From Candidatus Altiarchaeota archaeon (GTDB taxonomy: Archaea; Altiarchaeota; Altiarchaeia; IMC4; SCGC-AAA252-I15): a stretch of 64,000 nt of DNA. The notes beneath the pieces are model-generated. The model saw nothing but the letters and a program-made list of their open reading frames with translations, searched no databases and had not been told where the DNA came from. Shown piece by piece: positions 26,630-64,000 of this stretch. The position numbers and the translations under genes are program-made. Within the stretch, counting starts at the first letter, position 1, and the number at the start of each line of letters is the position of its first letter. The DNA lies in contig JAZDNF010000008.1 of assembly GCA_043800255.1 (NCBI GenBank), forward strand, positions 92,622 through 156,621. The letters run 5' to 3'.

Positions 26630-26671
26630 TATGTTTACATATTTAATATACAGAGGGTATAAAAAGATTAC

Positions 26672-46587: not shown

Positions 46588-46687
46588 CGGTATAGTAATG
46601 GTATTGAGGCATATAATAATCTCTCCGCTTACGGTTCGGTTAACCTATTGCAGGTAATTATAGAATCTCGCTTTTTACACCAAATAT

Positions 46688-46729
46688 CACTATTAGACGA
46701 ACATTTATCTCGCTTAATAGTTGTTAAGT
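46688..46729 (+). repeat. Degenerate attC-like hairpin ending in GTTRRRY core
   Basis: CTATTA...TAATAG stem followed by GTTAAGT (46723-46729), 88 nt before the GmrSD start. Confidence 0.4.
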
Positions 46730-46817
46730 GAAATAATTTCAGGGGCTAATGAAGGGGGGACATTTCTAAAAATATATTCAAAAGCTTTATAAAACTCATT
46801 TCAATATACCTATATTA

Positions 46818-48503: not shown

Positions 48504-48770
48504 TAAAGAAATGTCCCCTTTAATATTTATTCTTGATTTACGCTTCGCTCATTTGATGGAACGCTCTCTTTCTCGACTTTGAATTTTTACTCCGCTTCGC
48601 TCCGACCCCGCTGCGCTCTCGCTTCACTTCGTTACGCTCGGGACACATAACAAGGGATATACGGTTCGGGGCTCGGCTCACCCCCCACACAAATTTTGCC
48701 CCATAACTCTGAGTTATTCTACCGCTACGATCACCCAATCATTGTCTTCTTTTACAAAGCCCCAGAAAAC

Positions 48771-49109
48771 CTAGTAATTAAACCTTCTTTCATACTCTTT
48801 GTGAGTCATCCATTCAAGAATGATGCTTAAAATCATCACCTCATCTGTTTTGATTGTATAAATCAATCTCCAACCGCTTGGCAAATCATATTTCCATAAA
48901 TTTGTAATTCCATAAGTCTTAATGTAAAGTTTAGGCCATAATCTTTTAGGTACTTTAATAGCGCAACTGGGATCATCTTTTATCTTTTTTCTTGCCTCAT
49001 TTATCTGTTCATATAATTTTTTATCTTGGAATTTCCCTTCTTTTAACTTTTCAAAAGCATCTTCTAATCTTTTATCTCTAAACGCAACAAATTTAGGCTT
49101 GTCATTCAT
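48771..49109 (-). CDS. RelE/ParE-like toxin
   Basis: ITNLWKYDLPSGWRLIYTI...ILEWMTHKEYERRF; basic 112 aa, translationally coupled to the upstream gene. Confidence 0.7.
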   Translation of the reverse strand: MNDKPKFVAFRDKRLEDAFEKLKEGKFQDKKLYEQINEARKKIKDDPSCAIKVPKRLWPKLYIKTYGITNLWKYDLPSGWRLIYTIKTDEVMILSIILEWMTHKEYERRFNY

Positions 49110-49372
49110 ATTAATTTAACTCCTTTTGAGATCAATTTTTTTATCCCTTCAGGATCATAGGTCCAGATTATACGGCCGTCTTTGTCTATTAAAATCTTAC
49201 CAGAATTCTCTAAATAATCCAAAATTACATGAAAAGTTTGATACATCATTTTCTTTGGCAATTTTTTCCATAACTGATACCTTCCACATTCTTGGCTGTA
49301 TTTTTGTATAGTTTTCTCTACCATTATCACAGATTCTAATGTTGGACTATGTAGAACAGTTGTTTGTCGCAT
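49106..49372 (-). CDS. Putative antitoxin / winged-helix protein
   Basis: SPTLESVIMVEKTI...LWKKLPKKMMYQTFHVILDYLENSGKI; ATGA overlap with toxin; palindromic AT-rich promoter 49373-49410. Confidence 0.65.
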   Translation of the reverse strand: MRQTTVLHSPTLESVIMVEKTIQKYSQECGRYQLWKKLPKKMMYQTFHVILDYLENSGKILIDKDGRIIWTYDPEGIKKLISKGVKLI

Positions 49373-49630
49373 CTTATATAACTATATATAATAACTTATA
49401 TATAAACTTAACGGTTTTCTGGGGCTAAAATTTATCTTTTTTAGGTGGTCTTCGCTTATCAAGTCAGAATTAATAAGGGGCAAAACTTCGTTGAATGCCG
49501 ATGTTAAAATCAATTTTCCAGTATCTGTGGTTGGAAGAGTTGCTCAAACAGGATACTGTGGACTTGCATCCCTATTGGGGGAGTATAACACTAAATTCGA
49601 CATTAAGCTAGCAGAGCCTTGCTCAGACCG

Positions 49631-51328
49631 TTAGAGCAGCAGGAATCGCATTATTCCGCCGACTGTGAAGGTTACTAGTATCATCAGCATCACCGCTTTT
49701 GCCATGTCTTTTATTCCCAGTTCCTTGGTGAGGACTGTGAACGTCGCCACGCATGGGAAATAGATTGAGAGTATCGTGCACGCTACCACAAGCTGCATCG
49801 CGCTCAAGCCCAGGGGTGCGAGCATGCCGATTGCAACATCCTTCCTGAGGAAGCCTACTATCAGGGCGATTACCGCCTCATTCGGCAGGCCGAACCACGT
49901 GGAGAGGAACGGCCCGAATGCTCTTGCGAAGAGGTCGACTATGCCCAGAACATACAGAATGTTAACCGCCAGCACTCCCAGGAGCACATACGGGATGGCA
50001 TCTTTGATGAAATATTCCACCCTAACCCATGTCTTCCTCACCAGCGTCTGCAGTTTAGGCCTCCTGTAGGGGGGAATCTCCAGCAGCAGCTCAGGGCTCT
50101 CGCCCGGTATGAGCCTGTTCAATATCAAGCCTAATGTGACGTATAGTATCGCCAGCGTTGCGTAGACGATTGCAACATATTTGATTCCGAATCTCATGAG
50201 AAGCCCCAGGATTACGGCATTCTTTGCTATGCAGGGGATGCAGATGGCCATCAGCGTCGCGGCGATGAACCGCTGTTTTCTGGTCTCCATTATGCGGGTT
50301 GCAAGCGCCCCAGGCACGTTGCAGCCGAGGCCGAGCATCGCAGGCACTATCGCGGAGCCGTGCAACCCTATCCTGTGCATCATGCTGTCTGCCAGCGTCG
50401 CAAGCCTGGGCAGATAGCCTATGTCCTCCAGCAGGCTGAGCACAAAATAGAAGAGGATGACGAATGGTAGCGTCATATCCAGCGAAACATAGACTGCTGT
50501 CGTGAGAACGCCCAACGATTCTGTGAATTTGCCTCCTGAGCCTATCAGGATCTCGCGAACGATGCCGGACGGGAAAAAGCTCTCCACGGTTCCTGTTATG
50601 AACGGCCCATAAATGTTGTAGAAGAATGGATCTAGTATGTGTCCTATGACCCAGTTCCCAACGGAGACGATTGTGCTGAATACCAAAAACATTACGATAA
50701 ATGCGATTGGAATCCCTGGGATAGGTTTTATCGTCGCGTCCTCCAGAGACTCCCACAGAGTGTGATGCCTGTGCTCCACGGTCTGAACCTCCTTGGTTAT
50801 CAAGCCTATATCGCTCCACCGCTCATCCTCAGAGTGCTTCTTTATTTTTGGGCCTCTGGCCTCCGAAAGCCTTTCGGACAGCTCCTTCATGCCTTCTCCG
50901 GTAATCGCGACGGTCGGCACAACCGGGACGCCGAGCATCTCCTCCAGCTTCTTAACGTCCACTGTTATGCCAAGATGCCTTGTGTCGTCCCACATGTTCA
51001 GTGCAACAATCATGGGTTTCCCGGTCTCCAGCAGCTCCAGTGTGAGATAGAGGTTGCGCTCCAAGTTTGTCGCATCAACGACGTTTATGATTACGTCACC
51101 CTCTTTTAGCATCTCAGATGCTATCTCCTCAGCCCTGTTCCTGGCGTCCAGCGAATAGGTTCCTGGGACGTCTATCAATTCCACCTTCCTGCTCCCATAG
51201 ATCATATGGCCCGTGCAGTAGGAGACGGTCGTCCCAGGATAGTTGGAGCACATAACCTGCACTCCAGTAAGCCTTGAGAAGAGAACGCTCTTCCCGACGT
51301 TGGGATTCCCCATAAGCAGTATTTTCAT
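49631..51328 (-). CDS. feoB: Ferrous iron transporter B
   Basis: GNPNVGKS, NYPGTTV, DVPGTYS, NMWD, LEDIGYLPR, GLGCNVP, YFPCVAT. Confidence 0.95.
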   Translation of the reverse strand: MKILLMGNPNVGKSVLFSRLTGVQVMCSNYPGTTVSYCTGHMIYGSRKVELIDVPGTYSLDARNRAEEIASEMLKEGDVIINVVDATNLERNLYLTLELLETGKPMIVALNMWDDTRHLGITVDVKKLEEMLGVPVVPTVAITGEGMKELSERLSEARGPKIKKHSEDERWSDIGLITKEVQTVEHRHHTLWESLEDATIKPIPGIPIAFIVMFLVFSTIVSVGNWVIGHILDPFFYNIYGPFITGTVESFFPSGIVREILIGSGGKFTESLGVLTTAVYVSLDMTLPFVILFYFVLSLLEDIGYLPRLATLADSMMHRIGLHGSAIVPAMLGLGCNVPGALATRIMETRKQRFIAATLMAICIPCIAKNAVILGLLMRFGIKYVAIVYATLAILYVTLGLILNRLIPGESPELLLEIPPYRRPKLQTLVRKTWVRVEYFIKDAIPYVLLGVLAVNILYVLGIVDLFARAFGPFLSTWFGLPNEAVIALIVGFLRKDVAIGMLAPLGLSAMQLVVACTILSIYFPCVATFTVLTKELGIKDMAKAVMLMILVTFTVGGIMRFLLL

Positions 51329-52209
51329 ATCGCGTATATCACCACATAGCCTCCCTTGTCGTAGGCGTGCAGCAGGCCAACCCTTAGTTTCTCAACGTGA
51401 GTCATGTTTTCGGTGTTGACTTCTATGTCTTCGACGATTTTTCCGTTAGGCAGGATGACGTCAATCTTCGCCCTGTCGCTTCCTCGCTCAGTGAGCTTGA
51501 ACTCGTAGTTGTTCCACCACCGCCTGCAGAAGCCTGTCAGGTTCGTGTTGCAGCGCGGGCCTCCAAGGGAGAGGACTGCAGAGCCTTTTAGTATCTCCCT
51601 GGCTGCTGGGTCCTCTTTCACGTATATCGTGAGGTTGCCGGACTTGTTATCATAGGATAGTATCTTGAACATGAGCTCATCCGCATACCCTGTGTCGTTT
51701 ATGTCAAGGAGCCGGTAGTCGAGCCTGCCTGCAGTCCCTCTCAACGCCAGCATGTAGGATTCGCCGGGACACAGGTAGTGGAAGTAGCTCGCAGTCCTCG
51801 GCCAACCCTTAGCGCCGGGACACGTCACGTTAGTCGCCCTGGGACCGTCGAACTTGAACCAGAAGTTGCTTTCCCTGTAACGGATGTATTCCCCAGACAG
51901 GTTCATGATCTCACAGTTGCCGCAGAGCCTGCTGCAGTCAACCTCCGCCTCGCCATAGTTTTTTACGCCGTCAGAGCAGGGATGGATCGTAGTGGTTGTC
52001 AGTATCGTAGTGGTATACTCCGGTATCATTATGCTGCTTACGGTGATAGGCGGAGGTATCACAGTCGTCAGTTCAACGTATGTCGGCCCCTCAAGCGTTG
52101 TCGTGGTGGTTTGCGGCTTCAAAGATGTCGTAGTCTCATCCTCTCCAAGGATTCCTGTGCAACCTGAAAGGGAGATCATCGCAACCATCAGCAGGAGAGC
52201 GTATTTCAT
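51325..52209 (-). CDS. Putative surface lipoprotein with Thr-rich linker and Cys motifs, within the feo operon
   Basis: MKYALLLMVAMISLSGC lipobox, TTTTT tracts, CSDGVKNYGEAEVDC; 4-nt overlaps with both neighbours. Confidence 0.7.
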   Translation of the reverse strand: MKYALLLMVAMISLSGCTGILGEDETTTSLKPQTTTTTLEGPTYVELTTVIPPPITVSSIMIPEYTTTILTTTTIHPCSDGVKNYGEAEVDCSRLCGNCEIMNLSGEYIRYRESNFWFKFDGPRATNVTCPGAKGWPRTASYFHYLCPGESYMLALRGTAGRLDYRLLDINDTGYADELMFKILSYDNKSGNLTIYVKEDPAAREILKGSAVLSLGGPRCNTNLTGFCRRWWNNYEFKLTERGSDRAKIDVILPNGKIVEDIEVNTENMTHVEKLRVGLLHAYDKGGYVVIYAI

Positions 52210-52847
52210 GTTCCCACCAGGATCTTAGAGGCCATCCCACGGCCTAATGTTATTTTCATGTTGTCGATTTTGATCACAAGAGGCCCCCCGGCAGGCTCGC
52301 GGGCAATCACCTTGACCATCTTGCCCTCCCTTATGCCCATATTCTTAAGGTTGGACTGCAGCCCGATTCCCCCGCCTATTTTCAGCACCTTCACGGAATT
52401 TCCGGGTTTAACGTTCAGGAGGTGCAGTTCACTAACATTGCTGGCGACTCCGGGTATCGGCTTCCTGTCGTCCGGGCATTCAACAGGATGGTCCATCAGT
52501 CTATCCAACGCATCTGCAGACTCGTCGGAGAGGCCGTGCTCCAGCCTGCAGGCTTCAGGGTGAACTTTAGCCTTCCCTATGCCGAGGACGTCATGGAGGA
52601 ACCTTTCGAGAAGCCTGTGCTTCCTCTTGATTTTTCTGGCGTGCCTTTCCCCTTTTCTGGTAAGCTCAGCGCCCTTATAGGGCGAATACTTCAGGAAACC
52701 ATCTCCGTCCAGCTTCTTGAGCATCTCCGTGACGCTGGCAGGGCTGACATTCAGCTTACTGGCTATCTCAGAAGTCGTTGCAGGCTTACCCTGCTCCTCA
52801 AGGGAGTATATGGCCTCCAGGTACTCCTCCTTGTTCTCTTCGAGCAT
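52206..52847 (-). CDS. DtxR/MntR-family metal-dependent repressor with C-terminal FeoA domain
   Basis: EEYLEAIY, VSPASVTEMLKKL, RKHRLLERFL, EACRLEH; FeoA-like NMGIREGK...GPLVIKI...LGRGMASKI. Confidence 0.92.
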   Translation of the reverse strand: MLEENKEEYLEAIYSLEEQGKPATTSEIASKLNVSPASVTEMLKKLDGDGFLKYSPYKGAELTRKGERHARKIKRKHRLLERFLHDVLGIGKAKVHPEACRLEHGLSDESADALDRLMDHPVECPDDRKPIPGVASNVSELHLLNVKPGNSVKVLKIGGGIGLQSNLKNMGIREGKMVKVIAREPAGGPLVIKIDNMKITLGRGMASKILVGT

Positions 52848-52878
52848 GGATATACTATCTGAACCTGGGTTTAAAAAT

Positions 52879-52896
52879 ATTTAGGCACGCCTAAAT
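52879..52896. promoter_or_regulatory. Putative DtxR/MntR-type operator
   Basis: Palindrome ATTTAGGC-AC-GCCTAAAT next to TATA-like TTTAAA (~52870-52875) upstream of the repressor gene. Confidence 0.75.
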
Positions 52897-53669
52897 TTGC
52901 GCTCTTTTCTGTAATGGACAGCAAGGATGAGAAGTCCGGCCAGAACCCCGAAAACAACAATAAACTTAGAGGCACGCTCAACATAATACCACGCCCATCT
53001 GCCGCCAACCCGCTCAGAAGGCTCCCTGGCTGGCTGATTCCACTGGAAAACCCAACCACCAATTTCCACAGCATCTGAAAAGCTTATGCTACTGCCTGAC
53101 AGCTCAACATCATAGGGAGAAACCCTCTCACCGGCATCTGAAGGGGAATATGCTCCTGAGAGCAGCCCCTTCAGGACATCATCAGACGCGTTCTCGTCAG
53201 ACTGCCGTATGAGAACAGCATCCCCACGCCATATTTTAGGCCTGCCAGGCAGTGCATTCAAATCTAAACCCCCAAAGGGGAAGACGCCATCGGTTAAAGT
53301 GCATGGAGAGCCAGATGCAAGTCTCTCTGCTATGCCCTCTTCCAAAGTGGAGAGGATAGGACCATCACCTGAAACAGAATAACCATTTTCCCACAGCAGT
53401 TGGGGGATGCCAGCGCCAGCCAATCCAGCCTGATTGTAACCTCTGATAACCTCAACATTCTCCTTAGCCTTGTAAACCTCATACTCGACTACGACAACCT
53501 GGCTGTATTTTAGCGGAATCTCACCCAAAAGTGTGGGGTCAACCTCCGCACAGTGCGGACACCCTACCCCGGAAAAATAGATAACACAGATTACGTCAGA
53601 CCCTTCCGCAAAAACCGGCTGAAGGCTGAACAGCAACACTAGTAACAAATAATATCCAACTTTCTTCAT
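52881..53669 (-). CDS. Exported thioredoxin-like (CPHC) protein with C-terminal TM anchor
   Basis: Signal peptide MKKVGYYLLLVLL, YFSGVGCPHC, GIPQ, C-terminal TM. Confidence 0.7.
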   Translation of the reverse strand: MKKVGYYLLLVLLFSLQPVFAEGSDVICVIYFSGVGCPHCAEVDPTLLGEIPLKYSQVVVVEYEVYKAKENVEVIRGYNQAGLAGAGIPQLLWENGYSVSGDGPILSTLEEGIAERLASGSPCTLTDGVFPFGGLDLNALPGRPKIWRGDAVLIRQSDENASDDVLKGLLSGAYSPSDAGERVSPYDVELSGSSISFSDAVEIGGWVFQWNQPAREPSERVGGRWAWYYVERASKFIVVFGVLAGLLILAVHYRKERKFRRA

Positions 53670-53713
53670 AATCCGCTTAAGTTTTACGTTTACTAGAGAA
53701 TATATTCTAGAGA

Positions 53714-55099
53714 ATGGAGAAAAAGCGCTACTATGCGATGGCAATCGTGGTACTTTACCTGCTTCCCGCATTCGTCACCATAATACCCCCTGGATCACAG
53801 TACAATCCCACCAGCAAAATTGCAATAGACGTTCACCGGCCGTACATTTTCTCCGGCGACGAGCCCCACTACCTCGTCATGGTAGACAGCATCATAAGAG
53901 ACAGAGACCTCAGGGTTAGGAATAACTACCAGATTGCAGCAGAAAGCCATGTAAAAACAAAATACCATCCCTTCTTTATAACACTTGAGGACTATCACAC
54001 ATCAGAAGAAAATCTGGACTACTCTTTCCACCCGTATATAATACCCTTTCTAGCATCATTGGTACTCTGGCCGTTTTACTTGGTACATCAACTGGAAGCA
54101 GGAGCAGTATTATTATCAATAGCAGTCTCCATTATGGGAGTCTATTATACGTACAAACTGCTTAACCATTTTGATAAACATAATGCAATGCTGATAACGG
54201 TAGCCATCGCGCTGGGAACGCCTATTTTAAACTACTCAAAAACCTTCTTCAAAGAGCCATATTTGCTGGCATTCTTATCCTTATCTTACTATGTCTTCTT
54301 CGCCAAAAAAAGGAATCTTATCGCTGGAATCCTTATAGGAATTTGCTTCCTAACCAGACCAGTTTACCTGGTCTTTTCTCTCCTGATTTTTGAAAGGATT
54401 GCGAGAAAAGATTATAACGGAGGGTTAAATTTCATCTTGCCGATTGCGGCGAGTGTTCTTATCTTACTGCTCTCCAACTATGTTACCTACGGCAACGTCT
54501 ACGCAAGATATGGCGTATTCTTCAAAACTTCGTTCCTTAGGGGGATACCATTTTTTCTGATACTTGTCGGAGCAATTTTTTATATTCCAACATTATTCAG
54601 GAACAGGCTAAAAGATTTTACTGAGTTCTATAGCAGAAATCACCTATACGTACATATCCTTCTATTCATCTTCACAGTGATATGGATAGTAAACGTTGAG
54701 GGCCTGAGAACCATGTTATTATCCGCTAGAAAAGGCTTACTGGTCTACTCTCCTTTCGCAGTATTCTCCCTGTTTGGATTAGTTGACCTACAGTACACTG
54801 ATAGACAAATTTCAAAGTACATAGCAGTACCGACAATATTGTATGTTATACTGCTTTCATATGTACACTTCGATACAGGATACTCGTTTTCGTCCAGATT
54901 CATGGTGCCAATTCTGCCACTCCTGTCGATTAACTTGCTGTACTGGTATAGGGATAGGGGAACCTACATGAAAGCGATGTTCATCATGTTAGTAGCAGCC
55001 TCAATTACAATAAACATTTTAGCAGCATTCACGTACCAGGCTGCAGTATGGGATAGGACACCAATCGAGGTGATATTTAGCTTTATTGAGAATAAGTAG
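53714..55099 (+). CDS. Polytopic GT-C-type glycosyltransferase-like membrane protein
   Basis: GDEPHY motif after first TM, ~11 TMs, GLLVYSP and SRFMVPILP motifs. Confidence 0.65.
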   Translation: MEKKRYYAMAIVVLYLLPAFVTIIPPGSQYNPTSKIAIDVHRPYIFSGDEPHYLVMVDSIIRDRDLRVRNNYQIAAESHVKTKYHPFFITLEDYHTSEENLDYSFHPYIIPFLASLVLWPFYLVHQLEAGAVLLSIAVSIMGVYYTYKLLNHFDKHNAMLITVAIALGTPILNYSKTFFKEPYLLAFLSLSYYVFFAKKRNLIAGILIGICFLTRPVYLVFSLLIFERIARKDYNGGLNFILPIAASVLILLLSNYVTYGNVYARYGVFFKTSFLRGIPFFLILVGAIFYIPTLFRNRLKDFTEFYSRNHLYVHILLFIFTVIWIVNVEGLRTMLLSARKGLLVYSPFAVFSLFGLVDLQYTDRQISKYIAVPTILYVILLSYVHFDTGYSFSSRFMVPILPLLSINLLYWYRDRGTYMKAMFIMLVAASITINILAAFTYQAAVWDRTPIEVIFSFIENK

Positions 55100-55138
55100 C
55101 CCCAGATATATAGTCGCACCTAAACAATTATAACGGAC

Positions 55139-56965
55139 ATGGTGAGGAGTGGGGAAATTCTAAAAAAGAAGGGTGGAGTGGTGTTGAACGGCAACGAGGC
55201 CGTTGCCCGCGGCGCGCTTGAAGCAGGGGTCAACGTTGCCACATCCTATCCTGGAACGCCGGCAACGGAGATACTGGCAGCGCTCGCCGAAGTCTCGGAT
55301 AGAACGGGAGTCTACACCGAGTGGTCTGTGAACGAGGCTGTCGCCTTTGAGCTGGCCATGGGAGCATCATATGCCAACTTGAGGGCGATGTGCAGCATGA
55401 AGCACCTCGGTGAGAATACGATAATAGACGCCTTGAATGTGGTCAACTACACAGGAGTCAACGGCGGCCTCGTTCTTGTAGTTGCTGACGATCCCAAACC
55501 CATCGCCTCCCAGAATGCATTAGACTCAAGGTATCATGCGATAACTGCAAAGATTCCCTGCCTGGAGCCAGCCAACGGCCAGGAGGCTAAGGAGATGGTA
55601 AAGTACGCTTTCAAGCTCTCTGAGGATATAAGTCTGCCAGTCCAAATCAGGCTGACGTCGAAGATTTCACACACCAACTATGTCATAGAACTCGGCAGAC
55701 TGAGAGCAAAAAAGAAGACGCCCTCTTTCAAAAGGCAGCCTCACAGATTCGTGTGCATACCATCGCACTCGAGGGAGCTGCACCGCGAACTGAACAGGAA
55801 GAATGAAATTCTGAGAAGAATCTTTGAGAAGAGCGGAAATAACAGACTTGAGAAGTCTAAAAGCGATTTTGGAATCATCGCCTCCGGATTCGCGTACAAT
55901 TACGTGAAAGAGGCAATAGTAAGGACGAAAACCAAGGCTTCAATCCTCAAGCTGAGCACAGTAAACCCCATACCCCCTGAACTAATCAAGAGACTGCTTA
56001 AGAGAACGTCAAAAGTCTTGGTCGCTGAGGAGGTTGAGCCGATAGTCGAAGCAAAAGTCAGGGAGCTCGCGTTTGAGATAGGTTATAAAGGTGAAATTTT
56101 CGGGAAAAAAACAGGCCACATTCCACTGGAGTCGGAGCTTAGCGTGGAATCCATTGAAGATGCTGTTCTCGCCATCCTGAACAAGAAAAAATCAGCCAGG
56201 GAAAAAATCGAAGTCAAAAGGAGGATACCCTCGCTTTGCATCGGCTGCACCCACCGGGCATTCTATTATTCGCTGAGGAAGGCGCTTGAATTTTTTGGAG
56301 ACGACTACGTCGTGCTCGGAGACAGGGGCTGCTATAACGTGGGAGCTCATCCTCCACTGAATGCCATCGACACCTGCTTGTGTATGGGAGCCTCCATACC
56401 AGTCGCCTCAGGCCTGAGTAAGGCAGGATATAAGGGCAACGTTGTCGCAGTGATAGGAGACTCGACATTCCTCCACTCCGGACTTACCGGCCTCATAAAC
56501 TCCGTCCACAACCAGTCAAACCTAACAGTACTCATACTTGACAACAACTGGACTGCTATGACAGGCCACCAGCCTAACCCAAGCACAAGAGTTGACGCCG
56601 CCACGAACCATAAACCCCGCATTGACATCATAAAACTCGTGAAGGCTTGCGATGTCGGATTCTGCGAGAAAGCTGACCCGTATGACATTAAAGGGAGCAT
56701 TGATGTCCTGAAGAAGGCCGTTAAATTTGATGGAGTGTCAGTTGTCGTCTTCGAGAGGCCGTGCACCCTGAAGAGTAGATACCATGGAACTGCAGTATAT
56801 AACGTAAACCCTGACCGGTGCACTGGATGCCTGATATGCGTTGAAACATTCGGCTGCCCTGCGATAGTAAGGGGGGATATCACACCAAGGATAGATGACA
56901 ACTTATGCGTGAAATGCGGAGTATGCGTGCACGTATGCCCTGTCGGAGCGATAGAATCAAAATGA
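55139..56965 (+). CDS. iorA: Indolepyruvate:ferredoxin oxidoreductase alpha subunit
   Basis: GNEAVARGA, SYPGTP, MKHLG, LCIGCTHR, GDRGCY, IGDSTFLHSG, LDN..TAMTGHQP, two C-terminal ferredoxin motifs. Confidence 0.92.
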   Translation: MVRSGEILKKKGGVVLNGNEAVARGALEAGVNVATSYPGTPATEILAALAEVSDRTGVYTEWSVNEAVAFELAMGASYANLRAMCSMKHLGENTIIDALNVVNYTGVNGGLVLVVADDPKPIASQNALDSRYHAITAKIPCLEPANGQEAKEMVKYAFKLSEDISLPVQIRLTSKISHTNYVIELGRLRAKKKTPSFKRQPHRFVCIPSHSRELHRELNRKNEILRRIFEKSGNNRLEKSKSDFGIIASGFAYNYVKEAIVRTKTKASILKLSTVNPIPPELIKRLLKRTSKVLVAEEVEPIVEAKVRELAFEIGYKGEIFGKKTGHIPLESELSVESIEDAVLAILNKKKSAREKIEVKRRIPSLCIGCTHRAFYYSLRKALEFFGDDYVVLGDRGCYNVGAHPPLNAIDTCLCMGASIPVASGLSKAGYKGNVVAVIGDSTFLHSGLTGLINSVHNQSNLTVLILDNNWTAMTGHQPNPSTRVDAATNHKPRIDIIKLVKACDVGFCEKADPYDIKGSIDVLKKAVKFDGVSVVVFERPCTLKSRYHGTAVYNVNPDRCTGCLICVETFGCPAIVRGDITPRIDDNLCVKCGVCVHVCPVGAIESK

Positions 56966-57537
56966 ATTATGACATTGTCATCTGTGGGATAGGAGGACAG
57001 GGCGTTATGCTGATATCGAGGGTAATCGCAGAAGCAGCTCTGAAAGAGGGGGAAAAAGTCATGGTTATGGAAGACAGGGGGCACGCGAAGAGATTCGGCT
57101 CCATCTCATGCCATATCCGCCTCGGCGACGCATACTCTCCCACAATACCTGAAGGCTCGGCAGACCTGTTGGTAGGATTAGACCCGACAGAAGCGGTTAG
57201 GAACCTCCACTACCTTAAAAAAGGGAGTACCGCAATAATAGATTCTACTTCAGCTTCGATTGACGGAATAGCCGAATTCACGATTTATCAAGCAGCCCCG
57301 CTGGTGAATGACAAGAACGTCAGATTTTACACTGTAGACACAACAGGAATCTCAAACACGATAGGGAGCCAACTCGTCAGGAATATGGCGATGCTAGGAG
57401 CGATAACTGCGGTCGAATGTTTTCCGCTGGGCAAAAACATAGTTAAGAGATCAATGAAGACACTCGTTCCGAAAAAAATCAAAGAGAACGAAAAAGCATT
57501 TGAACTCAGCCACAAGCAGATAAAGAATGCACGCTAG
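56962..57537 (+). CDS. iorB: Indolepyruvate:ferredoxin oxidoreductase beta subunit
   Basis: ICGIGGQG, HAKRFGSISCHIR, NMAMLGA, NEKAF; ATGA overlap with iorA. Confidence 0.9.
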   Translation: MNYDIVICGIGGQGVMLISRVIAEAALKEGEKVMVMEDRGHAKRFGSISCHIRLGDAYSPTIPEGSADLLVGLDPTEAVRNLHYLKKGSTAIIDSTSASIDGIAEFTIYQAAPLVNDKNVRFYTVDTTGISNTIGSQLVRNMAMLGAITAVECFPLGKNIVKRSMKTLVPKKIKENEKAFELSHKQIKNAR

Positions 57538-58850
57538 ACCAGGAGGTCATCATACTCGACGCTGAAGTCCTTCCTGTACCAGTCAATCTCTGCCCAGCCT
57601 TTAAGACTGTCAGGGAGAACGAAACCGCCCCTGACTGCGAGTTCGAAAAGCTCGGTTCCGGGGTAGGGCGTGTACATGCTCATCTTCCAGACTATCGCAT
57701 CAGGGTTGTCAGTCTTTAACTCTCTTATCAAATCCAGAGTGTTATTGAACTCTTCCTCGATTTCTGTCGGAAAACCAGCCATAAAGGTGAATTCTGGAAC
57801 GATTCCAACCTCTTTGAGCCGGAGGTTAGCCTGCCGTATCATGTCAACAGTGATTCCTTTCCGGATAAGCTTCAATATTCTGTCAGACCCTGATTCCGCG
57901 CCGATATAGACTCTACACATTCCAGATTTCTTCAACTTTTCCAGAAATCCACTGCTCATTTTTAGAAGATCGTCCGCCCTGCACTCGCCCCACCAATTAA
58001 ACGATAGTCTCTCCTTGATTATCAAATCAAGTATCCGCTCAACCCGTCCCATATCTGCAAAAAGGTTATCATCAAGAAAATAGAGGGGACCAGCACCGAT
58101 AGCCAACAGCTGCTTAATCTGATAGATAGCTAACTCAGGTTTCAAGGTACGATATTTTTTGTTTAACATAGGGATGGAACAGTAGGCGCAATTTCTAGGA
58201 CATCCCCGACTCGTGAAAATAGTCCAAATGTAGCTAGCCTTATACCTCCCTATCAGAGAATAAGGCAGTGGATAGTAGTCATTCAGGTCTATAAGCTCAC
58301 GCTCAGGAGTTTGAATAATTTTCCCGTTCTCCTTGTAGAGTATTCCCTTCACACTCTTCAGATTCCCGTTACGTTCGAGTACCTTAACGAGTTCGAGTAA
58401 TGTCTCCTCACCCTCACCGACAACAACCACGTCAATATTCTTGTAGTCGATTGTCTGACTGGAAAGCATTGTTGCATGATGGCCTCCGACGACAACAGGC
58501 GTTTTAGGATAGTTTTCTTTTACATAATCGATCAACTCGCAGGCGTATTTTATCTGATTGCCAGGCATAAAGGTCAAACCAACACAGATAACCCCTTCAG
58601 CCAGCATACGATCCAGATCACCAAAACAATCACGCTCTATCCGCTGATCAAGGATTTTAACAGAATAGCCTTCTCTTACCAGAGAACCTGCCACAGCCAA
58701 CAGAGAGGAGGGGATTTGGATGTTATAGTCCCTATCGGATTTAGGGTGAATCATCAGGACATCATATTTATTACAGTCGTGGTAGGGATCGACCCTGCGG
58801 CCCAAAAGCCGATGTAAATGCTTTTCGACATACTTACGAGAGGAACCCAT
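57534..58850 (-). CDS. B12-binding radical SAM enzyme
   Basis: B12 domain (VVVGGHHAT, VVGEGE), SRGCPRNCAYC, DDNLF, GAESGS, MAGFPTE, PYPGTEL. Confidence 0.9.
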   Translation of the reverse strand: MGSSRKYVEKHLHRLLGRRVDPYHDCNKYDVLMIHPKSDRDYNIQIPSSLLAVAGSLVREGYSVKILDQRIERDCFGDLDRMLAEGVICVGLTFMPGNQIKYACELIDYVKENYPKTPVVVGGHHATMLSSQTIDYKNIDVVVVGEGEETLLELVKVLERNGNLKSVKGILYKENGKIIQTPERELIDLNDYYPLPYSLIGRYKASYIWTIFTSRGCPRNCAYCSIPMLNKKYRTLKPELAIYQIKQLLAIGAGPLYFLDDNLFADMGRVERILDLIIKERLSFNWWGECRADDLLKMSSGFLEKLKKSGMCRVYIGAESGSDRILKLIRKGITVDMIRQANLRLKEVGIVPEFTFMAGFPTEIEEEFNNTLDLIRELKTDNPDAIVWKMSMYTPYPGTELFELAVRGGFVLPDSLKGWAEIDWYRKDFSVEYDDLLV

Positions 58851-58882
58851 ATTAAGAATTAATCGGTAGTATATATGATAAC

Positions 58883-59626
58883 ATGCTGCTTGAAGAGAAA
58901 GTTATGCTCGTGACTGGCGCATCTAGGGGTATAGGAGCTGCCATCGCTAGAAGGTCTGCAGCAGAAGGTGCTAATGTTGTAGTGAACTATTTTAGAAGCG
59001 CGAATGATGCCAAACGCGTTGTAAAGGAGATAGCAAACTCGGGAGGCAACGCCATTTCAGTGAAAGCCGACGTATCAGATTTGGCGCAAGTCAGGAGGAT
59101 GGTGGCGAAGACCTTGAAAGAGTTGGGTGGTGTTGACGTCTTAGTGAACAATGCCGGCATAGTGAAGGACAGGACTTTGAAGAATATGACACTAGATAAA
59201 TGGAACGCCGTTTTGAATGTGAACTTGAAAGGAGCCTACAACTGCTGCAAATGCGTTATACCGCACATGATAGAAAAACGCTCTGGCAGGATAATCAATA
59301 TCGCATCAATCGTCGGACAGGCAGGCAACGTCGGCCAAGTAAACTATGCAGCATCTAAGGCAGGCATGATAGGATTGACGAAGGCGCTGGCAAGGGAGCT
59401 GGCGCCCAAGGGGATAAACGTGAACGCCGTCTCACCAGGCCACATAAAAACGGACATGATAGCCTCGATACCAGACAACATCCGAAAAGAGATACTGAGG
59501 AACATACCATTGGGGAGGGCGGGAACCGCAGACGAGGTCGCAGATGCTGTAGTGTTCCTGGCATCCGACATGTCTGAGTATATTACCGGCCAGGTCATAA
59601 ACGTGAACGGCGGACTCTATATGTAA
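58883..59626 (+). CDS. fabG: 3-oxoacyl reductase (FabG/PhaB-like SDR)
   Basis: TGASRGIG, NNAGI, GQVNYAASKAG, VNAVSPG, ITGQVINVNGG. Confidence 0.9.
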   Translation: MLLEEKVMLVTGASRGIGAAIARRSAAEGANVVVNYFRSANDAKRVVKEIANSGGNAISVKADVSDLAQVRRMVAKTLKELGGVDVLVNNAGIVKDRTLKNMTLDKWNAVLNVNLKGAYNCCKCVIPHMIEKRSGRIINIASIVGQAGNVGQVNYAASKAGMIGLTKALARELAPKGINVNAVSPGHIKTDMIASIPDNIRKEILRNIPLGRAGTADEVADAVVFLASDMSEYITGQVINVNGGLYM

Positions 59627-59628
59627 TA

Positions 59629-60051
59629 TTAGAGTATTGCCTTTCCAGTGGCCTCGCCTTGAACGACAATCTTCCCGTCCTGATTCCTGCAGATGGTCTT
59701 GAACCGCAATTTTTTCTCGTCCTCGATTTTTTCCAGAAGTTCAACTTCAACGGTAACAGTATCGCCTATCCTGACAGGTCTCAGGAATTCCAATGTCTGG
59801 GAGAGATACGCGTATCCCGTGCCGGGCAATTTCTGAGCGAGAACTGAGGAAATCAGACCACCGAGGTACATCCCATGGGCGATCCGGCCGCCGAAGACGG
59901 TTTTCCTGGCATAGTCGTCATCCAAGTGCATGGGATTCATGTCACCAGTAACCTCCGCATAAGCTCTGACATCTTCTGCAGTAACCTTCCGTTTTATTGA
60001 CGCCGTAACTCCAACACTAAGCTCTTCAAAGGATTTGTACTTGGCAACCAT
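59629..60051 (-). CDS. MaoC/PhaJ-type (R)-specific enoyl-CoA hydratase/dehydratase
   Basis: TGDMNPMHLDDDYA..FGGRIAHG, LPG, FLRPVRIGD. Confidence 0.9.
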   Translation of the reverse strand: MVAKYKSFEELSVGVTASIKRKVTAEDVRAYAEVTGDMNPMHLDDDYARKTVFGGRIAHGMYLGGLISSVLAQKLPGTGYAYLSQTLEFLRPVRIGDTVTVEVELLEKIEDEKKLRFKTICRNQDGKIVVQGEATGKAIL

Positions 60052-60099
60052 AGAATCACTAGGATATTATTATAATGCCAAAACCAATAATAATGCGCC

Positions 60100-61530
60100 A
60101 TGGGATTGAAGAGTAGTGGGGGTTACCGAGAAAGCCTTAAAAAGCTGAAACCCAATGTGTATATCAACGGAAAACGGATAAAGAACATCGTAGACAACCC
60201 CTTTTTGAAGCCTGGGATAAACACTATTTCTGTCACATACGACCTGGCAGTCGATGATAGGTACAAAGAGCTTATGACAGTCCAATCTGCGGAGATCGGT
60301 GAGACCATCAACAGGTTCAATCACATACATCAAACATCAGAGGATCTAATATCAAAGCTGAAGATGATAAGAGAATGCTGCCACAGAACCCTGTGCGCCC
60401 AACGGTGCATGGGCATGGACTGCATCAACTCCTTAACAATAGTAACCCAGCAGATCGACAAAAAACACAAGACACCATATTCGGAGAGATTTCAGAAATT
60501 CTTAAAGTACTTTCAAGAAAATGACCTAGTTGCGGCAGTTGCCATGACAGACGTGAAGGGAAACAGGTCCCTCAGGCCATCAGAGCAACCCGACCCAGAC
60601 ATGTACCTTCATGTCGTTGAAAAGGACGATGAGGGGATAATAGTCAAGGGCGCGAAAGTCCACACGACTGTCGCACCCCATGCGCATGAGATAATGGCAA
60701 TACCGACAAGGGCTATGAACGAGACGGAGGGAGAGTATAGCATCGCATTCTCCATCCCAAACGATACTAAAGGCTTGACGATGATATGCAAAGCAGGCAA
60801 ATCGTTCAACGATGAAAAACCGGAATTGAGCTCACGACATAATACAATAGAGTCATTGACAGTCTTTGACAACGTTTTTGTCCCGTGGGAAAGGGTTTTT
60901 CTATGCGGCGAACACGAGTTCTCAGGATCGCTTGCTACAGCCTTCGCAACATATCACAGGCACAGTTACAACGCATGCAAACCAGCATATGGGGATATAG
61001 TAATCGGCGCATCGGCGCTGGTGGCAGAACACAATGGGATACAGGACAAATCACACGTCAAGGAAAAAATAGCGAGATTAGTATATCACAATCAAATCTG
61101 CTGGGCATGTGGGATAGCAGGTTCGGTTAATGGCACGAAAACAGAGTCTGGGGCATATTTCCCGGACATGGGATTAGTCAACATCGGAAAACTGCATTCT
61201 GGTGAATCATTTCACGAAGAATTCCACCTGCTACAGGATATTGCCGGCGGTCTGACAGTAACTTTACCGTCAAAAGAGGACTATGAGAACCCGGAGATTA
61301 GAGGGTACATGGACAAGTACCTTAAAGGAGCAGACAATATCTCAACAAGAGATAGGATAAATCTTTTCAGGTTCATCAAGGACCTTACCGCAAGCGACTT
61401 TGGAGGTTTGTTTTCTGTCGCAGGCATACACGGAGGAGGCTCACCTCAAGCCCAGTGCATTGAGATACTGAGACAATACGACATCGACGAAAAGAAAAAG
61501 ATTGTGAAAGACCTTGCAGACATAAGATAA
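60100..61530 (+). CDS. abfD: 4-hydroxybutyryl-CoA dehydratase / vinylacetyl-CoA isomerase family (AbfD-like)
   Basis: CAQRCMGMD, AMTDVKGNRS.RPS.Q.DPD.Y, GAKVH, FDNVFVPWERVF, YHRHSYNACK (Fe-S Cys/His ligands), HGGGS. Confidence 0.82.
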   Translation: MGLKSSGGYRESLKKLKPNVYINGKRIKNIVDNPFLKPGINTISVTYDLAVDDRYKELMTVQSAEIGETINRFNHIHQTSEDLISKLKMIRECCHRTLCAQRCMGMDCINSLTIVTQQIDKKHKTPYSERFQKFLKYFQENDLVAAVAMTDVKGNRSLRPSEQPDPDMYLHVVEKDDEGIIVKGAKVHTTVAPHAHEIMAIPTRAMNETEGEYSIAFSIPNDTKGLTMICKAGKSFNDEKPELSSRHNTIESLTVFDNVFVPWERVFLCGEHEFSGSLATAFATYHRHSYNACKPAYGDIVIGASALVAEHNGIQDKSHVKEKIARLVYHNQICWACGIAGSVNGTKTESGAYFPDMGLVNIGKLHSGESFHEEFHLLQDIAGGLTVTLPSKEDYENPEIRGYMDKYLKGADNISTRDRINLFRFIKDLTASDFGGLFSVAGIHGGGSPQAQCIEILRQYDIDEKKKIVKDLADIR

Positions 61531-61560
61531 TCAACTGTTGTTCTAAAATCATATAGTAGT

Positions 61561-61989
61561 ATGAACAAGAAAAAAGCAGTAAAAGAATTTGTTACGGAAC
61601 ACAGGGTGAGGTATGCGGACACCGATAAGTCTGGGAGAGGATACTATGCCGCCTATCTCAGATGGTTCGAGATAGGACGGATAGAAGCTATAAGATCACT
61701 AGGAATCATCTACTCTGAACTTGAGAAGCAGGGATTTTTTGCACCAGTAGTTGAGTTAAATGTCAACTACAAACATCCTGTAGAATATGACGAAGAGCTA
61801 CTATTAGAGACTAATATAGAAAAGGTGGGGACGACTAGTATAAAATTAGGCTACCTGCTGTATAGGAAAAAAGATTCGCTCCTTCTCGCCCAAGCTTCGA
61901 CAACTCATGTGATAGTAGGTAGAAGCGGTAGACCCAGAAGGATACCAGAGAGTATTAAAAAATTATTGAAAGAAAAACCCTTAGATTAA
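61561..61989 (+). CDS. Acyl-CoA thioesterase (YbgC/4HBT hot-dog)
   Basis: RVRYADTD.SG..YYA.YLRWFE.GR, YKHPVEYDE. Confidence 0.88.
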   Translation: MNKKKAVKEFVTEHRVRYADTDKSGRGYYAAYLRWFEIGRIEAIRSLGIIYSELEKQGFFAPVVELNVNYKHPVEYDEELLLETNIEKVGTTSIKLGYLLYRKKDSLLLAQASTTHVIVGRSGRPRRIPESIKKLLKEKPLD

Positions 61990-61991
61990 GC

Positions 61992-62960
61992 ATGAAGAAG
62001 GAACTAAGAGCCGCCGGAATAACTGCAACAGGATCTTATGCCCCCGAAAAGATTGTAACAAACTCTGATATTGTCGAAAGAGGCGTTGACACCTCAGATG
62101 AGTGGATATACACGAAATTAGGTATAAAAGAGAGACGATTCGTCACAGACGAGGAAACATCAGACCTCACCGTTAATGCCATAAAGAATCTACTGAAAGA
62201 GACCGAATTAGCCCCTGCTGACTTGGACATGATAATCGTCGCGACTGGAACGCCTGACATGATGTCTCCTTCAACAGCATGTATAGTCCAAGACAAGCTT
62301 AAGGCAAAGAACGCGGCAGCCTTCGACATAAACAACGCATGCACAGGATTCAACTACGCCATAGAAGTTGGTGCAAAATTCGTTGCGGATGGAACCTATG
62401 ATAACGTAGTTGTAGTTGGTGCTGAGGTTAACTCTACGCTTCTGAACTGGGATGACCGGACAACCTGCGTCTACTTTGCAGACGCTGCTGGAGCAGTCCT
62501 CTTGAATCCAGTAGGGAACGGCTACGGTATGCTCGGCTCCTATCTTGGCGCAGACGGCTCAAAGAGGGATGTACTGTATGTGGCAAGAGAGGGGAATGAT
62601 TATTTCAAATATCGCATACATATGGATGGGAAGGCAGTTTGGGACTTTGCGGTGAACATTTTCCCGACTGCTGTCAGAAAAGCCGTAGAACAATGTGATC
62701 TAACAATCGAAGATATTGACTTTCTGATATCCCATCAAGCCAACATCAACATAATAGAGCACTGCATGAAAGAGTTAGGGCTTAGCATGGATCAGACGTA
62801 CACAACTATCAGAGATTATGGTAACACAGTCGCAGCATCAATTCCATTGTCACTAGACTACGCTGTCAGAAAAGGCAAAATAAAAAGGGGCGACATTGTG
62901 GTCTTTGTCGGTTTCGGCGCTGGCCTGACCTGGGGAGCTAACGTTGTGAGATGGGTCTAA
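61992..62960 (+). CDS. fabH: Beta-ketoacyl synthase III (FabH-like), copy 1
   Basis: DTSDEWI..KLGI.ERR, NACTGF, DRTTC, MDGKAV, SHQAN, YGNT, GFGAGLTWG. Confidence 0.9.
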   Translation: MKKELRAAGITATGSYAPEKIVTNSDIVERGVDTSDEWIYTKLGIKERRFVTDEETSDLTVNAIKNLLKETELAPADLDMIIVATGTPDMMSPSTACIVQDKLKAKNAAAFDINNACTGFNYAIEVGAKFVADGTYDNVVVVGAEVNSTLLNWDDRTTCVYFADAAGAVLLNPVGNGYGMLGSYLGADGSKRDVLYVAREGNDYFKYRIHMDGKAVWDFAVNIFPTAVRKAVEQCDLTIEDIDFLISHQANINIIEHCMKELGLSMDQTYTTIRDYGNTVAASIPLSLDYAVRKGKIKRGDIVVFVGFGAGLTWGANVVRWV

Positions 62961-63961
62961 AAACCGATGTCAAATGCAGAAGCGCGGGAATAACAGCCAT
63001 AGGTTCACATCTGCCAGAGGGGATTATAACAAACGACGACCTTGTTGCAACAGGGCTTAACACAACCTCAAAGTGGATAGTCGAGAAGACGGGGATAGCG
63101 AGCAGGCGGAAGGCAGCCCCAGACGAGTGCGCCACAGACCTGGCCGAGAAAGCCGCCAAAAAATGCATGAAGGCTGCGAGGATCAACCCAGACGAGATAG
63201 ACCTGCTGATATCATCAGGCACTGGCGACTATTACATCCCGACGAATTCCAATCTGATTGCCGAAAGATTAGGCACTGAGAACGCCGTGGCAGTTGACAT
63301 TCCGAACTACTGCTCGGCATTCAATTATTCGCTTACAGTTGCGGAAAAGTTCATAGCGGACTGCACATACGATAACGTCCTGATTGTCGGGGCTGAGATC
63401 ACCTCAAGGTTTACAGACTACACCGACAGGACAACCTGCATATTCTTCGGAGACGGCGCGGGAGCGGCGCTAGTCTCACCTGTAGACGAAGGTTATGGAA
63501 TCCTGTCATCGTACCTCAAAACCGCAGCAGGGGACAAGATGGTCCTATCCTTCCCAGGGGGAGGCACAATAAATCCGACATCATATGAGACCATCAAGAA
63601 GAGGATGCACTACATTAGGATGGACGGAAAGGCCATCTGGGATTTCGCGATAAAGGCGTTTCCCGAGGCAGTTCGGGAAGCTGTCAAACAAGCAGGCCTG
63701 ACAGTCAAAGACATAGACCTGGTAATACCCCACCAGGCGAACAGCAACATAATAAAACGGGGTATGGAGGAGCTGGGCCTTCCGATGACCAAAACCTTCA
63801 CAAACCTGCACAAATACGGAAACACAACCAGCGCCTCACAGATAATAGCACTAGACGAGGCAATACAACAGAAAAAAATCAAAAAAGACGACAACATCGT
63901 ACTAGCAGGATTCGGCGCAGCACTAAGCTACGGAGCCAACGTCATAAAATGGGCATACTAA
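62951..63961 (+). CDS. fabH: Beta-ketoacyl synthase III (FabH-like), copy 2
   Basis: WIVEKTGI.SRR, NYCSAF, DRTTCIFFGDGAGA, MDGKAI, PHQAN, YGNT. Confidence 0.9.
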   Translation: MGLKTDVKCRSAGITAIGSHLPEGIITNDDLVATGLNTTSKWIVEKTGIASRRKAAPDECATDLAEKAAKKCMKAARINPDEIDLLISSGTGDYYIPTNSNLIAERLGTENAVAVDIPNYCSAFNYSLTVAEKFIADCTYDNVLIVGAEITSRFTDYTDRTTCIFFGDGAGAALVSPVDEGYGILSSYLKTAAGDKMVLSFPGGGTINPTSYETIKKRMHYIRMDGKAIWDFAIKAFPEAVREAVKQAGLTVKDIDLVIPHQANSNIIKRGMEELGLPMTKTFTNLHKYGNTTSASQIIALDEAIQQKKIKKDDNIVLAGFGAALSYGANVIKWAY

Positions 63962-64000
63962 ACAACCTACTCCTAGAATACAACAAAAAACTCAAACCAA

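Follow-up and report, generated by a model that had tools for sequence, protein, structure and literature searches.

Bacterial-type KAS III and acyl-CoA enzyme genes beside surface-glycan genes in an inserted island of an Altiarchaeota genome

What do two bacterial-type KAS III (FabH) genes do in an archaeon? The question is raised by a 64,000-nucleotide stretch of the genome of a Candidatus Altiarchaeota archaeon (assembly GCA_043800255.1, contig JAZDNF010000008.1, positions 92,622–156,621), referred to below as the window, near the end of which tandem FabH genes lie among genes for other acyl-CoA enzymes. Bacterial fatty acid synthesis is held to be missing from archaea, and the presence of KAS III genes in one of them therefore invites the claim of archaeal fatty-acid production. 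The present analysis points to a more sober reading, in which the KAS III genes arrived together with a bacterial-type glycan locus within a single 28-kb island and most likely serve to decorate a surface sugar. Since bacterial-type acyl-CoA enzymes are found inside a surface-sugar pathway, their product is probably a small acyl decoration for the glycan and not fatty acids. The kind of locus is itself known; what is new is a glycan locus that carries an acyl-donor module of its own and is found in an unusual host.

The first-pass annotation, made from the letters of the window, had described ten open reading frames (ORFs) of this region as a fatty-acid/polyketide-like cluster. All ten were found where it had placed them and their family assignments hold; a further gene starts at the very end of the window. 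The genes are as follows (window positions, strand, gene product of the given length in amino acids (aa), evidence as E-values or as bits against the model cut-off):

53714..55099, +, GT-C-like polytopic membrane protein, 461 aa (ESM Atlas neighbours; no family)
55139..56965, +, IorA, indolepyruvate:ferredoxin oxidoreductase alpha (TIGR03336, 706 bits vs 651)
56905..57537, +, IorB-like subunit, POR gamma-type (PF01558, 5.6e-32; TIGR03334, 148 bits vs 206)
57534..58850, -, B12-binding radical SAM enzyme (PF02310 and PF04055; no equivalog passed)
58883..59626, +, FabG1, 3-oxoacyl reductase (TIGR01830, 318 bits vs 298)
59629..60051, -, (R)-specific enoyl-CoA hydratase, PhaJ/MaoC type, 140 aa (PF01575, 3.8e-25)
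60100..61530, +, AbfD type (4-hydroxybutyryl-CoA dehydratase/vinylacetyl-CoA isomerase), 476 aa (PDB 1U8V, 1.2e-122)
61561..61989, +, YbgC/4HBT-type acyl-CoA thioesterase (TIGR00051, 81 bits vs 69)
61992..62960, +, FabH1, KAS III (NF006829, 381 bits vs 249)
62951..63961, +, FabH2, KAS III (NF006829, 332 bits vs 249; overlaps FabH1 by 10 nt)
63949..64000, +, start of a radical SAM/SPASM gene, 336 aa (PF04055 and PF13186; overlaps the FabH2 stop and runs into contig C2)

The island and its glycan genes

The window is the terminal 64 kb of its contig (C11) and stops at the contig end. The last 66 bases of C11 are the exact reverse complement of the end of another contig of the assembly, C2, and this overlap holds the stop codon of FabH2 and the ATG of the next gene, 13 nt before the FabH2 end; the ATG at window position 63949 is position 15 of the reversed C2, which makes a coherent gene junction. 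The overlap leads into C2, and the cluster does continue beyond the window, as had been suspected. The gene order on C2 after FabH2 comprises the radical SAM/SPASM gene, a second FabG-like short-chain dehydrogenase/reductase (SDR2), a class-III aminotransferase on the other strand, a 349-aa GNAT protein, Wzx and a PIG-L deacetylase, followed by a GT4, a GT2, a second radical SAM/SPASM gene, another GT2 and a Bac_transf primer. The families expected of a Wzx-dependent locus are present, namely Bac_transf (6e-55), GT4, two GT2 and Polysacc_synt (Wzx, 9e-22). Because this continuation encodes glycan genes, the acyl genes are embedded in a glycan locus, and the link to a surface glycan that the first-pass annotation had offered is substantiated. 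No Wzy family match was obtained at the locus, and the 461-aa GT-C-like protein is the only candidate for a polymerase or ligase. That protein matches no Pfam or NCBIfam family; its ESM Atlas neighbours belong to bacterial PMT_2, RgtA-D-like and PIG-U clusters (feature score 0.98–0.99, TM-score 0.70–0.74), so that "GT-C-like" is a lead and not a membership, and the protein may be a glycan transferase or polymerase. The GT4 and PIG-L genes score far below the BshA and BshB cut-offs, and the aminotransferase is related to 4-aminobutyrate (GABA) and omega-transaminases.

The 349-aa GNAT protein has only 21 homologues, all with at most 33% identity, and no sequence-level match in the PDB. The predicted model is a tandem GNAT (pLDDT 87, pTM 0.86), and the 40 structures listed among its top 50 PDB matches are all N-myristoyltransferases (TM-score 0.59–0.66, Foldseek E about 1e-15), at a sequence identity of 11–14%. 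The modelled double-GNAT fold suggests an acyl-CoA:amine N-acyltransferase taking acyl groups larger than acetyl.

The outer limits of the inserted region are given by two carbamoyltransferase paralogues, A and B, and its left part contains genes of other kinds:

45664..46587, -, carbamoyltransferase paralogue A (OTCace_N and OTCace), native left flank of the island
46588..64000, strand not applicable, left part of the island (66-bp overlap to C2; A/B spacing)
46818..48503, +, GmrSD-like (DUF262) restriction protein, low-GC cargo (PF03235, E 2e-28)
49631..51328, -, FeoB ferrous iron transporter (TIGR00437, 375 bits vs cut-off 316)
52206..52847, -, MntR/DtxR-type metal regulator (NCBIfam matches below cut-offs, best 2e-34)

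Paralogue B lies on C2, to the right of the glycan genes, and is followed by carbamoyl-phosphate synthase. In the relatives G015 and G009 the orthologues of A and B are divergent neighbours, 36–53 bp apart, whereas here they are separated by 28,294 bp, the length of the island; the region is therefore an inserted island between divergent carbamoyltransferase genes and not a chimera. The orthologues of A have 69–70% identity in G015, G009 and G019 and those of B 64–67% in G015 and G009, and in G009 four upstream genes are also kept in order. About 17.4 kb of the island, its left part, is in the window and the remaining ~10.9 kb is on C2 (read in reverse), and the ten genes make up the left half of the biosynthetic locus; both halves are contiguous with the archaeal backbone, each on its own contig. 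The island thus sits between genes that are adjacent in two relatives, and its FabH and AbfD cargo has no counterpart in the phylum genomes described below.

A bacterial fragment misjoined to an archaeal contig during assembly or binning, the possibility against which the first-pass annotation had warned, would agree with the bacterial-type nearest relatives of the acyl proteins (for FabH, Clostridia and Halanaerobiales, about 50–52% identity), with a GC content somewhat below that of the backbone and with the draft state of the genome in 17 contigs. Such an artefact is nevertheless hardly credible, given the joining of both island halves to the archaeal backbone on separate contigs, the same divergent orientation of the flanking genes as neighbours in two relatives, the 66 identical end bases with their coherent junction, and the tetranucleotide usage of the acyl and glycan parts, which is ordinary for the genome (53rd–73rd percentile of distance). 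The GC content is indeed lower than in the backbone, as had been remarked (island 0.456, acyl part 0.466, against a genome median of 0.513 in 5-kb windows). The compositional outlier in the island is the GmrSD part alone, since the segment 46600–49500 has a GC content of 0.307 and deviates more in tetranucleotide usage than any other part of the genome. This segment, which carries the GmrSD-like (DUF262) gene, an ORF for a weakly ParE/YoeB-like toxin and an upstream 88-aa ORF, probably entered the same site separately and at a later time. In G019 (contig C34, locus L181, 9012–12101), the place of paralogue B after A is taken by an ORF that exceeds 1000 aa and matches no Pfam family; this different ORF after A indicates that the A/B intergenic site is variable, and apparently a hotspot at which the cargo changes. 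The scanned island proteins include no member of an integrase or transposase family, and the window has no tRNA; no search for flanking repeats was made. A second low-GC stretch (0.344) was observed at window positions 26001–28000, with a 492-aa ORF (26672–28150, +) and a 214-aa ORF (25985–26629, -).

The host is an archaeon, as the first-pass annotation had taken it to be. PolD and an archaeal-type LeuRS are encoded on the same contig as the window, and the placement of the host relies on the nearest named LeuRS relatives, which have 61–67% identity and are all labelled Altiarchaeota or Altiarchaeales. The draft genome (1.75 Mb) is 93% complete with 1.3% contamination; no 16S rRNA gene was found in the assembly, and searches for tRNA and Rfam families gave no match in the window. 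The distribution of the island genes was examined in a set of 61 species genomes of the phylum, and the counts on 60 given here refer to the other genomes of this set. FabH1 was found in 0/40 relatives (E 1e-20) and in 0/60 phylum genomes (E 1e-30), and AbfD likewise in 0/60, so that, on these searches, the acyl genes are foreign to the lineage. The double-GNAT protein is matched weakly in three of the 60 genomes, Bac_transf in ten, IorA in 12 (best full-length identity 48%), and paralogues of the B12-radical SAM enzyme in 31 (best identity 39%). The named relatives of FabH1, among the matches listed, come from Clostridia and Halanaerobiales, and one relative, on a 2.9-kb contig, reaches 69% identity; FabH2 has no relative above 50% identity in the searched set, and the best AbfD relatives in species-representative genomes have 51% identity (Anaerolineales, Planctomycetota). 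Judging from these relatives, the donor of the acyl genes cannot be named.

The acyl genes and the partners of fatty acid synthesis

FabH1 and FabH2 (46% identical to each other) both score above the NF006829 and TIGR00747 cut-offs and contain the ACP_syn_III and ACP_syn_III_C domains. Both keep the catalytic triad, with a Cys aligned to the active site of solved FabH structures, the His of the HQAN motif and the Asn of the GNT motif. The residue Arg249 of E. coli FabH reportedly has a docking role for the acyl carrier protein (ACP), in work said to be that of Zhang et al. from 2001. At this place both island proteins have Asn, within the motifs HQANIN (FabH1) and HQANSN (FabH2); the numbering follows that of E. 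coli FabH, His244/Asn247/Arg249, as given in an excerpt of PMC10054515. Among the 119 other proteins listed from the FabH1 search, this place is occupied by Arg in 84, Asn in 18, Val in nine and Lys in one, with seven proteins lacking a literal HQAN; the eight best FabH1 matches all have Asn. As a sign of ACP independence, the Asn residue is only suggestive. A flexirubin or dialkylresorcinol pathway was considered and rejected, the FlxB and DarB models scoring below their cut-offs.

The other enzymes of the module appear to act on CoA esters. The best solved relatives of the MaoC-type protein are the PhaJ (R)-enoyl-CoA hydratases 5CPG (2.9e-31) and 1IQ6 (5.9e-25). The similarity of the 476-aa protein to the AbfD structure 1U8V extends over residues 6–475, and that to 6VJR has an E-value of 5.6e-111; all four positions of the Fe-S ligands are kept, with CaqrC aligned to CfqrC (CxxxC) and HrhsynaC to HrqsyggC (HxxxxxxC). 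In AbfD numbering the ligands are Cys99, Cys103, Cys299 and His292. An HpaB-type monooxygenase was rejected (AbfD 413 bits against 192 for the best HpaB, with the Fe-S ligands kept), and by these alignments the protein is a true AbfD type; the known substrates of AbfD being C4 compounds, it points to C4 substrates here. The thioesterase has its best PDB relative in the 4-hydroxybenzoyl-CoA thioesterase 6FDG (9.5e-21), and FabG1 is 60% identical to SDR2. AbfD, the thioesterase, FabH1, FabH2, the radical SAM/SPASM gene and SDR2 form one co-directional run with gaps of 2–30 nt or short overlaps. The CoA-based chemistry proposed in the first-pass annotation has fared well; the chemistry looks CoA-based from the PhaJ-type hydratase, AbfD, the acyl-CoA thioesterase and the double-GNAT protein resembling N-myristoyltransferase, and from an island without ACP, FabD and AcpS. 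Two divergent gene pairs, B12-radical SAM/FabG1 (58850–58883) and MaoC/AbfD (60051–60100), have 32 and 48 bp between them, very tight for two archaeal promoters.

The partners of bacterial type II fatty acid synthesis (FAS II) were sought in the whole 93%-complete genome. FabD (PF00698) has no match there, and the FabF family PF00109 has a single weak match of 35 bits on contig C16, beside a weak KAS III-C match; we take this pair to be a 3-hydroxy-3-methylglutaryl-CoA synthase and a thiolase. The absence of ACP, FabD and FabF from the window, already noticed in the first-pass annotation, is thus borne out and extends, for true FabD and FabF matches, to the whole genome. Its proposal to look there for ACP, a phosphopantetheinyl transferase and acetyl-CoA carboxylase brought a divided answer. 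ACP (PF00550) and AcpS (PF01648) have one match each, both on contig C14 and neither in the island, placed between an AMP-binding ligase and a cytidylyltransferase of another sugar locus; acetyl-CoA carboxylase (PF01039, PF02785) has none. The C14 locus (L182, C14:141000-153500) encodes a DegT aminotransferase, an NAD epimerase/dehydratase, a CTP_transf_3 cytidylyltransferase, the AcpS-type phosphopantetheinyl transferase, the 81-aa ACP and the AMP-binding ligase, as well as an inositol-monophosphatase-family protein, a PdxA-like dehydrogenase and a radical SAM/SPASM protein; it looks like a locus for carrier-protein-dependent acylation of a nucleotide sugar, separate from the island. A partial paralogue of the island GNAT lies at C14:141083-141571 (31% identity over 155 aa). 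PF01039 is found in one of the 60 other phylum genomes, and this sole match adjoins the best in-phylum double-GNAT homologue (L183, G025:C189:1-1552), a hint that related modules may be equipped with a malonyl-CoA supply of their own; L183 is a 1.5-kb contig of a 70%-complete genome, and mis-binning is possible. As for enoyl reduction, no enoyl reductase family is among the Pfam and NCBIfam matches of the island, and no genome search aimed at FabK, FabV or Ter was made; both SDR proteins score best as FabG, a result by which the profile alone cannot exclude SDR-type enoyl reductases. By its gene content, the island module is not FAS II.

These results bear on an explanation close to the original one, namely that Ior supplies an (aryl)acyl-CoA starter for one or two rounds of KAS III, ketoreductase and dehydratase, with thioesterase release of a fatty-acid- or polyketide-like metabolite or lipid. 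IorA is bona fide, passing its equivalog cut-off about 2 kb upstream of the acyl genes, and the set of two KAS III, two ketoreductases, one dehydratase and one thioesterase would be the right one for two non-iterative rounds; polyketide-type clusters are also mentioned, in a portion of PMC9902471, for archaeal metagenome-assembled genomes including Altiarchaeota. This explanation is quite unlikely in view of the lack of a recognisable enoyl reductase, FabF, FabD and ACP in the island and of acetyl-CoA carboxylase in the genome searches, and the fatty-acid or polyketide pathway of the first-pass annotation has to be given up on the same grounds. AbfD, moreover, is a C4-specific enzyme type, the acyl genes run directly into the glycan genes, and the opposite-strand radical SAM gene separates Ior, which is co-directional with the GT-C-like gene, from the acyl genes; adjacency is what suggests a role of Ior in starter supply. 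A ladderane-type lipid radical SAM enzyme was also considered and rejected (TIGR04072, 116 bits against a cut-off of 360).

The proposed route and the recurrence of its genes

The reading favoured here, to which we give about an even chance, is a Wzx-type surface-glycan locus with its own carrier-protein-free, CoA-based module, in which a short hydroxy- or amino-acyl group is N-linked to deacetylated glucosamine. It retains from the first-pass annotation the bacterial-type, CoA-based and surface-glycan-tied character of the cluster and drops the fatty acid or polyketide. What the analysis shows are the identities of the genes, the insertion of the island, the foreignness of its genes to the phylum, the lack of FAS II partners and the recurrence of a subset of the genes; we infer all substrates, the direction of AbfD, the acceptor and any participation of Ior. 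KAS III would form a 3-oxoacyl-CoA, most simply acetoacetyl-CoA, which FabG would reduce to the (R)-3-hydroxyacyl-CoA and the PhaJ-type hydratase would convert to an enoyl-CoA (crotonyl-CoA); AbfD may then give 4-hydroxybutyryl- or vinylacetyl-CoA. The second pair of KAS III and FabG, the class-III aminotransferase and the three radical SAM enzymes might extend or tailor the acyl group. The PIG-L deacetylase would free the amine of the N-acetylglucosamine laid down by GT4, the double-GNAT protein would N-acylate this amine from acyl-CoA, and Wzx would flip the unit. A precedent for the product class is the 3-N-(4-hydroxybutanoyl) amino sugar of the Idiomarina O-antigen, named in a title in the reference lists of PMC7281560 and PMC8707391.

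The recurrence of the gene set was followed in two sets of loci, the 80 best AbfD loci from species genomes (neighbours within 10 kb) and 80 FabH loci from metagenomes. Besides FabG-like SDR genes in 14/80, the FabH loci contain a tandem FabH in six, PIG-L in three and a B12-radical SAM gene in one; the HQANxN motif occurs in only eight of the 80. One metagenome contig (L150) combines FabG, an Asn-type FabH, three GT4, a GT2, PIG-L and an ORF of 315 aa from the family of the island GNAT (hhalign 99.7%, E 4e-26). Hence co-conservation, which the first-pass annotation had regarded as decisive, is found once for the subset FabG-FabH-GNAT-PIG-L-GT4 and, in 0/80 and 0/80 loci, not for the full set. 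A tally of 48 neighbouring ORFs from nine further loci, including four of the eight Asn-type ones, is led by aldehyde dehydrogenase, luciferase-like, asparaginase II and giant RCC1 proteins, none of them glycan genes; the four Asn-type loci, L106, L109, L111 and L113, have a recurrent neighbourhood of aldehyde dehydrogenase, a luciferase-like monooxygenase, asparaginase II and proteins of 1600–1800 aa with RCC1 and Ephrin_rec_like repeats.

Several observations weigh against the favoured reading. FabH is present in none of the 80 AbfD loci, and AbfD, MaoC, thioesterase and Ior are present in none of the 80 FabH loci, which for Ior speaks equally against its supplying a starter for a released metabolite; most of the other Asn-type FabH loci are not glycan loci. 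A KAS III of A. baumannii with Asn at the Arg249 place still binds ACP, according to an excerpt of PMC8036411, FabG1 passes an equivalog for 3-oxoacyl-ACP reductase, and outside the island the genome does encode an ACP and an AcpS. The thioesterase would hydrolyse acyl-CoA and not transfer the acyl group. The genome searches with PF01039 and PF02785 gave no source of malonyl-CoA, and a decarboxylating KAS III is thereby left without an evident extender, a concrete biochemical puzzle. Finally, the island also holds unrelated cargo (GmrSD, the toxin-like ORF, FeoB and MntR), which makes proximity a poor argument for a common pathway.

The neighbours of AbfD bring in a further explanation, a C4 energy or carbon module that converts 4-aminobutyrate, 4-hydroxybutyrate or a 2-oxoacid via crotonyl-CoA to acetoacetyl-CoA and merely lies beside glycan genes in a mosaic island; its members would be AbfD, the PhaJ-type hydratase, the two FabG-like SDR proteins, the class-III aminotransferase and Ior. 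A FabG-like SDR gene adjoins AbfD in 16/80 bacterial and archaeal loci, MaoC is a neighbour in 3/80 and an Ior-like subunit in 2/80; the kinship of the aminotransferase with GABA and omega-transaminases and the unrelated cargo of the island are likewise consistent with such a module. It seems unlikely, however, as it leaves no place for two KAS III and a thioesterase; KAS III is tightly packed with AbfD, the thioesterase, the radical SAM/SPASM gene and SDR2. A search of the genome, moreover, found no Cat2-type CoA transferase (PF13336), its Fe-ADH matches are distant, on contigs C3 and C7, and L150 presents FabG and FabH with the same GNAT, PIG-L and GT4 families.

The decoration of a surface glycan by a CoA-based acyl module remains the preferred reading. 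Were the proposed route true, genes would be assigned to the 3-hydroxy- and 4-hydroxybutanoyl N-acyl groups of bacterial glycans, a KAS III sub-family would be defined by its Asn in place of Arg249 and might use CoA esters, and an uncultured subsurface archaeon would be seen to remodel its surface by gene transfer. The best-known member of the Altiarchaeota lineage is reported to have a double membrane. A more specific version, which must be called improbable, has an N-acyl-glucosamine envelope glycoconjugate for which Ior supplies a CoA ester (e.g., malonyl-CoA from oxaloacetate, or an arylacetyl starter), with carrier-protein-free KAS III and with AbfD adding the terminal hydroxyl; if true, it would be the first genetic route to sugar decorations of the 4-hydroxybutanoyl type. 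A literature search, supplements aside, found no paper on KAS III genes in Altiarchaeota or on AbfD in a glycan locus, and the text of PMC4975002 contains no occurrence of "fatty acid" or of "acyl carrier".

Comparison with known systems

The resemblance to bacterial FAS II is confined to single enzymes. The two KAS III proteins pass FabH cut-offs with the Cys, His and Asn motifs and FabG1 passes its equivalog, whereas ACP, FabD, FabF/B, FabZ/A and a recognisable enoyl reductase are missing from the island, its dehydratase is a PhaJ/MaoC acyl-CoA enzyme, and Asn stands at the Arg249 place. An ACP-independent fatty acid synthesis of archaea, with native thiolase-family condensing enzymes and an enoyl reductase, is said to have been proposed by Lombard et al. 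in 2012 and Dibrova et al. in 2014. Acyl-CoA intermediates, an SDR reductase and a MaoC-type dehydratase are shared with this proposal; here, in contrast, the condensing enzymes are imported KAS III of bacterial type, the island lacks a recognisable enoyl reductase, and none of the 60 other phylum genomes has the genes.

The AbfD enzymes of Clostridium aminobutyricum (1U8V) and Nitrosopumilus (6VJR) are matched over the full length with the Fe-S ligands kept, but the context in the island is neither GABA fermentation nor the 4-hydroxybutyrate CO2-fixation cycle, the neighbours being KAS III and glycan genes. Mycothiol synthesis (MshA/MshB/MshD) follows a logic of GT4, PIG-L deacetylase and double-GNAT, and deacetylate-then-reacylate steps are also found in lipoglycopeptides. 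GT4, PIG-L deacetylase and a tandem GNAT stand side by side in the island as well; the GNAT family is a rare one, however, and Wzx, the GT2 proteins and the Bac_transf primer show a lipid-linked glycan and not a small thiol. With eukaryotic N-myristoyltransferase the double-GNAT protein has only the fold in common, that of a tandem-GNAT acyl-CoA:amine N-acyltransferase; the identity is 11–14%, and the acceptor in the island is presumably a sugar amine.

The closest likeness in product would be to the N-(3-/4-hydroxybutanoyl)-amino sugars of bacterial O-antigens and capsules. We know of no genes assigned to the making of the 4-hydroxybutanoyl group on bacterial sugars. One metagenome locus (L100) has in a row a formyltransferase, PIG-L, a PglD-like N-acyltransferase, FabH and 3-hydroxyacyl-CoA dehydrogenase, and so pairs the last two with an N-acyltransferase; the enzyme set of the island would likewise fit a path from acetoacetyl-CoA via 3-hydroxybutyryl- and crotonyl-CoA to 4-hydroxybutyryl-CoA, followed by N-acyl transfer.

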